NCBI GenBank assembly: GCA_947570215.1
Contig: CANOTO010000001.1
Coordinates: forward strand, 262,735-326,734
DNA length: 64,000 bases
Direction: 5' to 3'
From: an uncultured Clostridia bacterium
GTDB taxonomy: Bacteria > Bacillota > Clostridia > Christensenellales > CAG-314
A model generated the notes under the pieces. That model did no database searches. It saw nothing but the letters and a program-made list of their open reading frames with translations, and had not been told where the DNA came from. The translations under genes were made by a program, and so were the position numbers. Each line of letters opens with the position of its first letter. Positions within the stretch are counted from its first letter, which is position 1. Positions 43,565 to 57,328 of the stretch are shown one piece after another.

Positions 43565-43570
43565 ATTAGA

Positions 43571-43598
43571 GCGGTTTGCTTCTTAAAAAGCAAACCGC
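43571..43598. terminator. Hairpin terminator after queH
   Basis: GCGGTTTGCTT-CTTAAA-AAGCAAACCGC followed by TTTG. Confidence 0.6.
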
Positions 43599-43655
43599 TT
43601 TGATTATCGTTACCTGCAACAACATAAGCGCCGCGCCTTGTTTGCGCGAAAGCCG

Positions 43656-43907
43656 TTATTCTTCGTCGGACATATTGTCTATAAGCCATTGCACGTCTTT
43701 TATTACGCCGTCAAACCTTTGCTTAGACAGATTGTATTTATACACTTTTTTTCGCCATTGCTCGCAGCCGCCGTTTACGTCGGTCAATTTGTTTAGTACC
43801 GTGCAATAATAAGGTCCGCGATAAACCCAAAACGCAACACGCCCCTTGTAATAAACTTGCTTGCAGGCGTTGCAGCGAATACACTTATTATTCTTCATTC
43901 TGCCCAT
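43656..43907 (-). CDS. Cys4 mini-protein, paralogue 2 (83 aa)
   Basis: KCIRCNACKQVYYKG...(22)...C...(13)...CEQW followed by a helical acidic tail. It overlaps the end of paralogue 1 by 20 nt. Confidence 0.6.
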   Translation of the reverse strand: MGRMKNNKCIRCNACKQVYYKGRVAFWVYRGPYYCTVLNKLTDVNGGCEQWRKKVYKYNLSKQRFDGVIKDVQWLIDNMSDEE

Positions 43908-44160
43908 ACATATCTTCTTCCATTAGGCAGCGCAAGGCAGTTATCTGCAACAGCAGCTCGTTTAGATAATATCGTGTGCGTCCGTGTAATCTTTTGCCTA
44001 TACGTCGTTGTGCAAATTTTTCGCAACTATCCTTTACGTTAACCATTGTTCTCGTTTCCCGACAAAGCCCCGAATCCACGGGCTTAAACCGCTTGTCCCC
44101 TTTGATATAAAATCTTTCAAAAGCTTTACATACGCGACATTTTTCATTATCGTCTGTCAT
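43888..44160 (-). CDS. Cys4 mini-protein, paralogue 1 (90 aa)
   Basis: MTDDNEKCRVCKAFERFYIKGDKRF...GLC...DSCEKF... The start was set to the ATG at 44160, which follows GGGGGA. Confidence 0.6.
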   Translation of the reverse strand: MTDDNEKCRVCKAFERFYIKGDKRFKPVDSGLCRETRTMVNVKDSCEKFAQRRIGKRLHGRTRYYLNELLLQITALRCLMEEDMYGQNEE

Positions 44161-44186
44161 AATTAGTCCCCCTGACAAAACTAATT

Positions 44187-44228
44187 ATATCTCAATTTGA
44201 GATATATGTCAACATCTCAATTAGAGAT
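44187..44228. promoter_or_regulatory. Two palindromic operator candidates in the divergent intergenic region
   Basis: ATATCTCAA-T-TTGAGATAT (44187-44205, perfect 9-bp arms) and ATCTC-AATTA-GAGAT (44214-44228). They share the TCTCAAT / GAGA half-sites. Confidence 0.6.
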
Positions 44229-44259
44229 AATTATAATTTAAGAAAAAACACGAAAAATT

Positions 44260-44463
44260 ATGATACTACCGAGATTAAAAGAACTGCGCGAAGAACACGG
44301 CTTAAATCAACAACGAATTGCCGAATTACTGCATATAAAACAAAATACTTACTCTCAGTACGAAAACGGAGTAAGAGACCTGCCATTAGAATACTTGATT
44401 GAACTGTCGAAAATATATTCCGTATCCACCGATTATATTTTGGGGTTGCGAAACGATCTGTAA
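44260..44463 (+). CDS. XRE-family HTH transcriptional regulator (67 aa)
   Basis: LKELREEHGLNQQRIAELLHIKQNTYSQYENG is the Cro/C1-type HTH. Confidence 0.85.
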   Translation: MILPRLKELREEHGLNQQRIAELLHIKQNTYSQYENGVRDLPLEYLIELSKIYSVSTDYILGLRNDL

Positions 44464-44498
44464 AAAACGACTTGAAGCAAGCTTCAAGTCGTTTTTTT
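44462..44498. terminator. Bidirectional terminator
   Basis: AAAAAACGACTTGAAGC-AA-GCTTCAAGTCGTTTTTTT. Confidence 0.75.
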
Positions 44499-44535
44499 AT
44501 TATTAACCGCTGCACTGAACACATGAATTGTGCGG

Positions 44536-56821: not shown

Positions 56822-57025
56822 TTAATCAGTTATTCCCAATAAATAATCCGCAGAGATATTTAACTCTTTACAAATTAAAATCAACACATCCAAAGAAGGC
56901 TCTCTTTTACCTGTGCAATAGTTATTTACAACTCCTTGCGACATAGAAATTTTACGCGCAAGTGCCATTTGAGATAAGTTATTATCCGCTAATGCTTCGT
57001 TTAATCTATCTTTGAATTTATTCAT
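56822..57025 (-). CDS. XRE-family HTH regulator (67 aa), CI-like partner of a divergent pair
   Basis: LSQMALARKISMSQGVVNNYCTGKREPS is the HTH. Confidence 0.8.
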   Translation of the reverse strand: MNKFKDRLNEALADNNLSQMALARKISMSQGVVNNYCTGKREPSLDVLILICKELNISADYLLGITD

Positions 57026-57038
57026 AATATTATTTTAA

Positions 57039-57109
57039 GGCTTTTAGCCGTATTTGTCTTGACAAACGGCTAAAAGCCGTATATATTATTTGTATTGCTA
57101 ATAGCCGTA
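57039..57109. promoter_or_regulatory. Operator/promoter region between the divergent XRE genes
   Basis: 13-bp inverted repeat GGCTTTTAGCCGT (57039-57051) / ACGGCTAAAAGCC (57066-57078) flanks TTGACA (57059-64). After 17 nt comes TATATT (57082-87). The heptamer AGCCGTA occurs three times, at 57046, 57075 and 57103. Confidence 0.55.
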
Positions 57110-57127
57110 GGCTTGGGAGAACATTAA

Positions 57128-57328
57128 ATGGCCGTAAACCTAAACACAAAAATAATCGAACAATTTATGGCAGAAAACAGACTGTCGAAAAAGGAATTCT
57201 GTGCGCGATGTAAAATAAGTGTTGCGACGTATTACCGTATTATGCAAAACAAAGACGAAAATCTGCGGTCGCTATTCAAAATAGCCAAAACAATGGGCGT
57301 TCCGATAAAGACGCTCTTTATTTGTTAA
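57128..57328 (+). CDS. XRE-family HTH regulator (66 aa), Cro-like partner
   Basis: LSKKEFCARCKISVATYYRIMQNK is the HTH. RBS GGGAGAACATTAA. Confidence 0.75.
   Translation: MAVNLNTKIIEQFMAENRLSKKEFCARCKISVATYYRIMQNKDENLRSLFKIAKTMGVPIKTLFIC

Follow-up and report, generated by a model that had tools for sequence, protein, structure and literature searches.

Here, we report a compact genetic switch in a window of 64,000 nucleotides (nt), that is, the whole stretch of DNA analysed (contig CANOTO010000001.1 of assembly GCA_947570215.1), from an uncultured bacterium of the Christensenellales. Two overlapping genes for small paralogous proteins with four cysteines each (Cys4; hereafter A and B) are faced by a divergent gene for a 67-aa helix-turn-helix protein of the XRE type, and two palindromes lie inside the promoters between them. 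The type of circuit is known: divergent promoters contain the operators on which a minimal XRE repressor acts. The family of the output proteins is new. The switch very probably works as described below. The explanation that we favour as a whole, a repressor-gated cassette whose A-B pair is a likely nucleic-acid-binding regulator, is more tentative and has a little less than an even chance of being right. The genes and control elements are as follows:

Gene B, 43656-43907, minus strand: 83-aa paralogue of A, taken from the list of open reading frames (ORFs) and the translation.
Gene A, 43888-44160, minus strand: 90 aa from an ATG; its four cysteines (C8, C11, C33 and C46) are followed by a basic linker, an amphipathic C-terminal helix and a tail of acidic residues.
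Shine-Dalgarno sequence AGGGGGA of gene A, 44167-44173, minus strand: 6 nt before the ATG, read from the sequence.
Promoter P_AB, 44184-44212, minus strand: TTGACA (44212-44207), 17 nt, TATAAT (44189-44184); 12/12 consensus matches.
Predicted operator O1, 44189-44203, unstranded: ATCTCAATTTGAGAT, a perfect palindrome that fills the spacer of P_AB and overlaps its -10 box.
Promoter P_xre, 44209-44237, plus strand: TCAACA, 17 nt, TATAAT; 10/12 consensus matches.
Predicted operator O2, 44214-44228, unstranded: ATCTCAATTAGAGAT, a palindrome with one imperfect half-site, inside the spacer of P_xre.
Gene xre, 44260-44463, plus strand: 67-aa stand-alone XRE/Cro-CI-type helix-turn-helix protein (Pfam HTH_3).

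The original prediction, made from the letters of the DNA, had described two Cys4 ORFs of 90 and 83 aa with a 20-nt overlap (43888-43907), a divergent 67-aa XRE gene and a 99-bp gap (44161-44259) with two palindromes, and all of these were confirmed. An alternative TTG start, which a gene caller would pick, gives an ORF for A at 43888-44178; the ATG is preferred because AGGGGGA stands 6 nt upstream of it and because transcription, to judge from the -10 box, would start at the TTG itself. Judging from the gene overlap, the view that B would be translationally coupled to A is strongly supported. Both mini-proteins are under purifying selection, with ratios of nonsynonymous to synonymous substitution rates (dN/dS) of 0.22 for A and 0.24 for B in the comparison with a relative at 83% identity (L005).

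The -35 boxes of P_AB and P_xre stand back to back. O1 and O2 are near-identical palindromes 25 bp apart, and O1 can be extended to perfect 10-nt arms (44186-44206). The chance expectation for such palindrome matches in the window is 0.22, and no further operator copies were found in the 1.53-Mb genome. The palindromes are read as predicted operators of the local XRE protein because of their position inside both promoters and because the recognition helix of the XRE protein co-varies with the palindrome half-site across related modules. The helix TSQQNISRWE pairs with ACACAA/TTGTGT in five modules, NGYASWEQGRT with TACCCA/TGGGTA in four, SAMSVSDWT with ATAAGA../..TCTTAT in three, QPTVGQYLSGRA with ATAGGCA/TGCCTAT in three, and QSTIAHYIKGDI with TATGATTA/TAATCATA in two. 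Modules with a common helix are also related by descent, and this co-variation is supportive of the assignment rather than proof. The tight repressor control proposed earlier is likewise supported.

The 67-aa protein itself matches Pfam HTH_3 (PF01381) with an E-value of 4e-16 and 59.2 bits (cut-off 23) over residues 6-60. Its nearest solved structures are the DNA-binding domain of ImmR from ICEBs1 (E 2.7e-11) and the phage 434 repressor, and there is a weak match to the PADLOC profile Control_protein (E 2e-4). Its predicted role as a dedicated local repressor is strongly supported.

The same design was observed in many other genomes. A degenerate DNA pattern for the N-terminal motif of the Cys4 proteins was found in at least 119 places of species-representative genomes, and 92 modules were confirmed by the family profile. 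An XRE gene lies within 500 nt upstream in 69 of the 92 modules, and it is divergent in all 69 and co-directional in none; 15 modules have no XRE gene nearby. According to A- and B-specific profiles, 46 of the 92 modules have A followed by B, 43 have A alone, two have A-A and one has B alone. The order is A then B in 46/46 pairs, usually with a stop/start overlap of 4-29 nt. We scored the best promoter toward the Cys4 gene in 68 XRE-Cys4 modules that have a short intergenic region. It has 12/12 consensus matches in 22 modules, 11/12 in 14 and 10/12 in 10. Among the 31 modules that have both a promoter and a GC-containing palindrome, the centre of the palindrome falls in the spacer in 22, between the -10 box and +12 in seven and elsewhere in two.

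With regard to distribution, almost all named records belong to Christensenellales metagenome-assembled genomes from the gut of mouse, chicken, ruminants and human (Christensenella, Christensenellaceae, Borkfalkia, Scatosoma and Coproplasma are among the names), with a few chance matches elsewhere. The family is present in 9 of 46 genomes of the genus, and in 0 of 35 genomes of the 17 other genera of the same taxonomic family. Sampling about 400 genomes across the class gave 6 with the family, most of them in a single further family of this order. A carrier genome often contains 3-6 matches, as do some genomes of 1.5 Mb. All-against-all clustering of the neighbouring ORFs revealed the XRE gene as the sole recurrent neighbour, the rest being varied housekeeping genes. 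No family members were found in the 50,697 phage records searched, in IMG/VR contigs or in PLSDB plasmids. A link to phages or to integrative and conjugative elements, which had also been raised, found no support in these collections or in any recurrent mobile-element neighbour. The module is chromosomal and accessory, and is not phage- or plasmid-borne in the collections searched.

The paralogy of A and B, first suggested by their shared cysteine pattern, was borne out by BLASTP (27% identity over 49 aa, E 0.001) and by cross-detection with profiles (the B profile finds A at 1.5e-11 and the A profile finds B at 1.4e-8). Word-based searches returned near-identical proteins only, and the family emerged when a six-sequence profile was scored, without a word index, against 1.84 billion representative proteins. 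It comprises 535 clusters at E ≤ 0.001 and 144 at E ≤ 1e-10, nearly all of 85-115 aa. Together with the dN/dS values of about 0.2, this shows that the ORFs are conserved. An alignment of 100 sequences has five invariant positions (C8, C11, G31, C33 and C46) and two nearly invariant ones (Y18 and L66), and the cysteine spacing of the family is Cx2C-x21-C-x12-C. Column statistics indicate that the N-terminal domain is basic (90% of sequences have a basic residue at K20, and most have one at positions 16 and 27) and that a basic linker at positions 52-60 and an acidic tail at positions 81-89 are present. Between them lies a helix with heptad-like hydrophobic positions (66, 69/70, 73, 76 and 79/80) and a conserved R77. 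The net charge counted from the translations is about +4 for A and about +8 for B.

An AlphaFold2 model of A based on the 100-sequence alignment had a predicted local distance difference test (pLDDT) value of 89.9, with three strands (residues 14-20, 25-33 and 38-41) and one helix (59-89). The architecture predicted for both proteins is strongly supported: an N-terminal three-stranded Cys4 domain that would bind metal, then the basic linker, the C-terminal helix and the acidic tail. The classical zinc ribbon has two CxxC knuckles on a three-stranded sheet and binds one zinc ion; the family has one CxxC knuckle, and its predicted sheet is three-stranded. The metal site of A and B may hold zinc or an iron-sulphur (Fe-S) cluster. 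The matches that Foldseek gave in BFVD were weak (E 0.01-0.1, template-modelling score about 0.4); they are ORFans of gut siphoviruses that are labelled zinc-ribbon and are uncharacterised. In PDB, the phi3T SroF-Sar complex appeared as a fold match with a probability of 0.03 and was taken as noise.

That the Cys4 proteins could not be placed in a family held under profile searches. Searches of Pfam-A, NCBIfam, PHROGs and PADLOC assigned A and B to no family at E ≤ 0.01, and 100 family members had no match in Pfam, PHROG or NCBIfam at the same threshold. Below the threshold (E 0.02-0.44), A and B touched Fer4_2, Mut7-C, zf-MYND, two PHROG ORFan families and two NCBIfam models, all far below the family cut-offs. 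We found no description of the Cys4 family in the literature.

Several lines of indirect evidence suggest that A and B form a complex, namely a natural fusion, the fixed gene order and the translational coupling, and we consider an A-B heteromer probable. The fusion, P0021 (173 aa), joins A to B in one protein, with a divergent 67-aa XRE gene beside it and housekeeping genes around; in all modes of MAFFT, B-type proteins were placed onto its A half. Other apparent fusions among long ORFs turned out to be merely over-extended reading frames.

A and B are the sole output of the switch. Based on the geometry of the control region, an XRE dimer would fill O1 first and shut P_AB, which has consensus strength. 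At higher XRE levels O2 would also be filled, limiting P_xre and thereby the synthesis of XRE itself. The outcome would be that A-B is off and XRE is held low and self-limited. When expressed, A and B might pair through their C-terminal helices as a heterodimer, and the products of single-gene modules might form homodimers. The heterodimer could then bind nucleic acid and act as a transcription or nucleoid modulator, which would make A-B the second arm of a switch like those of Mnt/Arc, CI/Cro or the transcription factor-small ORF (TF-smORF) modules considered below. Nucleic-acid binding appears the most likely activity because A and B are both net basic. On its own, the proposal that they are regulatory nucleic-acid binders rather than killers is somewhat doubtful.

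The history of the locus bears on this choice. A syntenic module is present in another genome (G027); it runs ABC (ATP-binding cassette) exporter, xre, A, B, one extra gene, queH, and its operator motif is that of the window. Synteny of the locus extends to species whose synonymous divergence (dS) is above 1, which suggests long vertical retention. In the closer relatives G023 and G046, unrelated small ORFs stand between queH and the exporter and the trio is missing, so that this junction is a variable spot with alternative cargo. The junction was compared over 43565-44535 of the window with L183 and L195.

Two further relatives have an unusual xre allele. In G022, A and B are each one residue off those of the window (99% identical), and in L005 A is 83% identical. 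The 5' end of xre in both (L022:1840-2060 and L005:1869-2080) reads TAA TAA CCG xCA TTA AAA, with no ATG, GTG or TTG. O1 is absent from both, the -35 box of the A-B promoter is weaker, and A and B are intact. Between the start-less G022 and L005 alleles the dN/dS of xre is 0.09, and the changes between the window and G022 are clustered only in the first 14 codons. It is possible that the start-less xre is translated by unrecognised initiation, or that the regulatory cassette was moved by recombination. If xre is dead in G022 and L005, A-B would be tolerated there without a repressor, which would argue against a lethal product.

On the other hand, a number of points weigh against a nucleic-acid-binding regulator. 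Metal binding, dimerisation and nucleic-acid binding by A and B are all inferred. Foldseek found no relative of the model in PDB (best E 2.9), and a profile search of PDB sequences gave neither a meaningful match nor a homologue of known function. P0021 folded without an alignment yielded an all-helix model with a pLDDT of 61, which was discarded. A regulator without an identifiable regulon is unsatisfying. The argument from tolerance is also weakened, since the start-less xre is under purifying selection (omega 0.09) and may still function. Finally, consensus promoters, several copies per small genome and location in a variable spot are equally typical of toxin or defence cassettes.

In the strongest alternative, A and B together, or A alone, are harmful growth-arrest or abortive-infection effectors and XRE is a guard repressor. 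Loss or inactivation of XRE, for example by phage anti-repressors, host shut-off or proteolysis, would release a burst from the consensus promoter. The module would then be a counterpart of toxin-antitoxin or defence cassettes that relies on a repressor only. The tight-off, strong-on design kept across modules would fit such a role, as would the patchy spread within the genus and its absence from the other genera, the 3-6 matches in some 1.5-Mb genomes, and the position of the trio in a junction that carries other small cargo in relatives. Operator specificities that diversify like immunity types, and a regulator that is interchangeable (a ribbon-helix-helix gene at a third paralogue, see below), also agree with it. 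However, Pfam, NCBIfam and PADLOC contain no toxin or defence family that matches A or B, a divergent repressor alone cannot give post-segregational killing, and A and B are paralogues, which implies that they are not a toxin/antidote pair. In addition, G022 and L005 retain intact A and B despite the start-less xre and the loss of O1, 15 modules lack a nearby XRE gene, and synteny of the locus persists between species with dS above 1. We regard the effector model as rather unlikely. Also unlikely is a further possibility, that A and B are a new class of effectors that bind a metal or redox cluster and are silenced by a guard repressor. They would act either as a new repressor-only anti-phage or growth-arrest system or as a new type of dimeric DNA-binding factor, with zinc ribbon and coiled coil, whose reprogramming of the cell might extend to the phage-like head-gene cluster found across the taxonomic family.

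Three-component toxin-antitoxin systems with a separate regulator, such as omega-epsilon-zeta and paaR-paaA-parE, are co-directional operons with unrelated toxin and antitoxin. The Cys4 modules resemble them in having a small DNA-binding regulator plus two small proteins, in occurring at scattered accessory loci and in having several copies per genome; here, however, the regulator is divergent, the two proteins are paralogous and no toxin domain is detectable. The features of type II toxin-antitoxin systems were not observed either, since the regulator is divergent in 69/69 modules, no toxin family is matched and A and B are paralogues. Two other candidates were rejected: an MqsA-like split antitoxin (Pfam MqsA_antitoxin and TIGR03830 touch only the helix-turn-helix of the XRE protein) and a bacteriocin (A and B carry a high charge and lack any leader or signal sequence).

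A second alternative is that A and B are anti-repressors that inactivate their own XRE protein, with positive feedback, or another small XRE protein. The layout is that of the TF-smORF modules of linear plasmid-like vibriophages, in which an XRE/C-protein-like factor activates a smORF whose product inactivates the phage cI (Silpe et al., Nature 2023, PMC10432266). In both cases a small XRE-like factor is divergent from a small ORFan gene, each module is specific for its own promoter, and the small protein is the sole output. The genome of the window also has 34 XRE-like ORFs, 21 of them of 120 aa or less, including arrays next to Cys4-like genes, and the conserved acidic tail could mimic DNA. 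However, the TF-smORF modules are phage-borne in Vibrionaceae and work by activation, whereas the present module is chromosomal in Christensenellales, has no phage genes and shows a geometry that indicates repression: its promoter needs no activator and the operator lies in the spacer. It also differs in having a conserved Cys4 family in paralogous pairs. Neither a prophage context nor a candidate target was found, and the net basic charge of A and B makes them less likely to be acidic DNA mimics that act as anti-repressors. We consider an anti-repressor quite unlikely. Of the other functions suggested in the original prediction, a lethal toxin is weakened by the relatives with a start-less xre.

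Ogr of phage P2 and Delta of P4 (PF04606) are zinc-finger activators of late genes, and P4 Delta is a fused double Ogr. By analogy, A and B might be late-gene activators of a phage-derived particle, acting on a cluster of TerL, portal and capsid genes, with XRE in the role of Xre in PBSX. Both groups consist of basic Cys4 proteins, about 70-90 aa long, and each includes a natural tandem fusion. XRE-A-B lies directly upstream of the TerL-portal-capsid cluster in one lineage, a homologous cluster is present on contig C2 of the window's genome, and the weak fold matches to zinc-ribbon ORFans of gut siphoviruses point in the same direction. Against this, the adjacency was seen in one lineage among about 90 contexts, and TerL of the cluster is present in 81/82 genomes of the taxonomic family while the Cys4 family occurs in 9/46 genomes of one genus. 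As the cluster is near-universal and the Cys4 family rare, the Cys4 proteins cannot be its general activator. The cysteine spacing differs as well (Cx2C-x22-Cx4C in Ogr/Delta), there is no sequence match and Pfam Ogr_Delta does not detect A or B. Moreover, A and B carry a long helix of coiled-coil-like type in their C-terminal part and end in an acidic tail, and no members were found in the phage, IMG/VR and plasmid collections searched. This explanation is very unlikely. A phage structural zinc-finger protein was also considered and rejected, since no phage record with family members was found.

The TerL cluster is of some interest by itself. At C2:131016-139565 (L174) and L031:9619-16267 it is a compact set of TerL, a small ORF, portal, scaffold-like and major-capsid genes, and neither integrase nor replication genes adjoin it. 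The TerL of the cluster occurs in all 18 genera of the taxonomic family, mostly as one full-length copy (as pieces in fragmented assemblies), and TerL identity falls from 79% to 59% with taxonomic distance. The cluster looks like a vertically inherited, domesticated phage-like element of Christensenellales, possibly one resembling a gene-transfer agent.

The last alternative, that A and B are a decaying remnant or spurious ORFs without function, could appeal to genes of no known function that are restricted to one lineage, and is hardly credible in view of dN/dS values of about 0.2, 535 clusters with invariant cysteines and glycine, conserved architecture and promoters, and a confident fold prediction.

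Parallels to the repressor-gated regulator that we favour are found in phage immunity regions. In immI of P22, mnt is divergent from arc-ant, and CI/Cro switches have back-to-back promoters with internal operators. The Cys4 module shares with both a small repressor that faces a tightly controlled operon and operators inside back-to-back promoters, and P22 further offers a ribbon-helix-helix repressor, as found at the third Cys4 paralogue. Unlike in these systems, A and B are unrelated to Arc, Ant and Cro, and no phage genome surrounds them. The C proteins of restriction-modification systems, where a minimal XRE dimer acts on two adjacent palindromes, resemble the predicted circuit; here, however, restriction or methylase genes are missing, and the two operators belong to different promoters, unlike the tandem C-box that precedes the C gene.

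The Christensenellales are gut bacteria that are heritable and associated with health; hardly any have been cultured, and little is understood of their accessory gene content. The new family, with hundreds of clusters, no database model and a confident predicted fold without a solved relative, recurs in one compact genetic switch. The many repressor-operator pairs on consensus promoters represent a ready set of orthogonal tight switches for Gram-positive anaerobes. Should A and B turn out to act in defence or growth arrest, or to have a new fold for DNA binding, the cassette would be a new type of module among small two- and three-gene systems.

The locus is flanked by QueH at one side and the ABC exporter at the other. 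The proposal that it is an insulated, autonomous module between these two genes agrees with the following elements:

44462-44497, unstranded: strong bidirectional intrinsic terminator with a 16-pair stem, an A tract and a T tract, common to xre and the convergent ABC-exporter gene.
43570-43649, unstranded: hairpins that resemble terminators, in the interval from the end of B to that of queH, 43626-43649 (minus strand) found by a scan and 43570-43599 (12-bp stem) by reading the sequence.

Relatives of the module were also noticed elsewhere in the same genome. A third paralogue, single and of 98-104 aa, lies on contig C5 (C5:86322-86636; L002:1468-2013) and faces a divergent CopG-type ribbon-helix-helix gene, not an XRE gene, with an 11/12 promoter between them; a DUF2130 gene and a convergent XRE gene adjoin it. 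The type of regulator appears interchangeable, since this paralogue has a ribbon-helix-helix gene in place of XRE. The 110-aa product of a gene on contig C2 (C2:157060-158430) shares the architecture of the family, with Cx2C...C...CEYF and a helix at the C-terminal end, and was missed by the family profile. Four tandem small XRE genes form an array divergent from this gene, and in G027 (L028) two A-B modules are flanked by a similar array.

Several of the 34 XRE-like ORFs in the 1.53-Mb genome of the window also face other small ORFan proteins. Within the window itself, positions 56822-57328 again show a small XRE gene with a divergent small gene, and such pairs seem to be a general theme in this organism.

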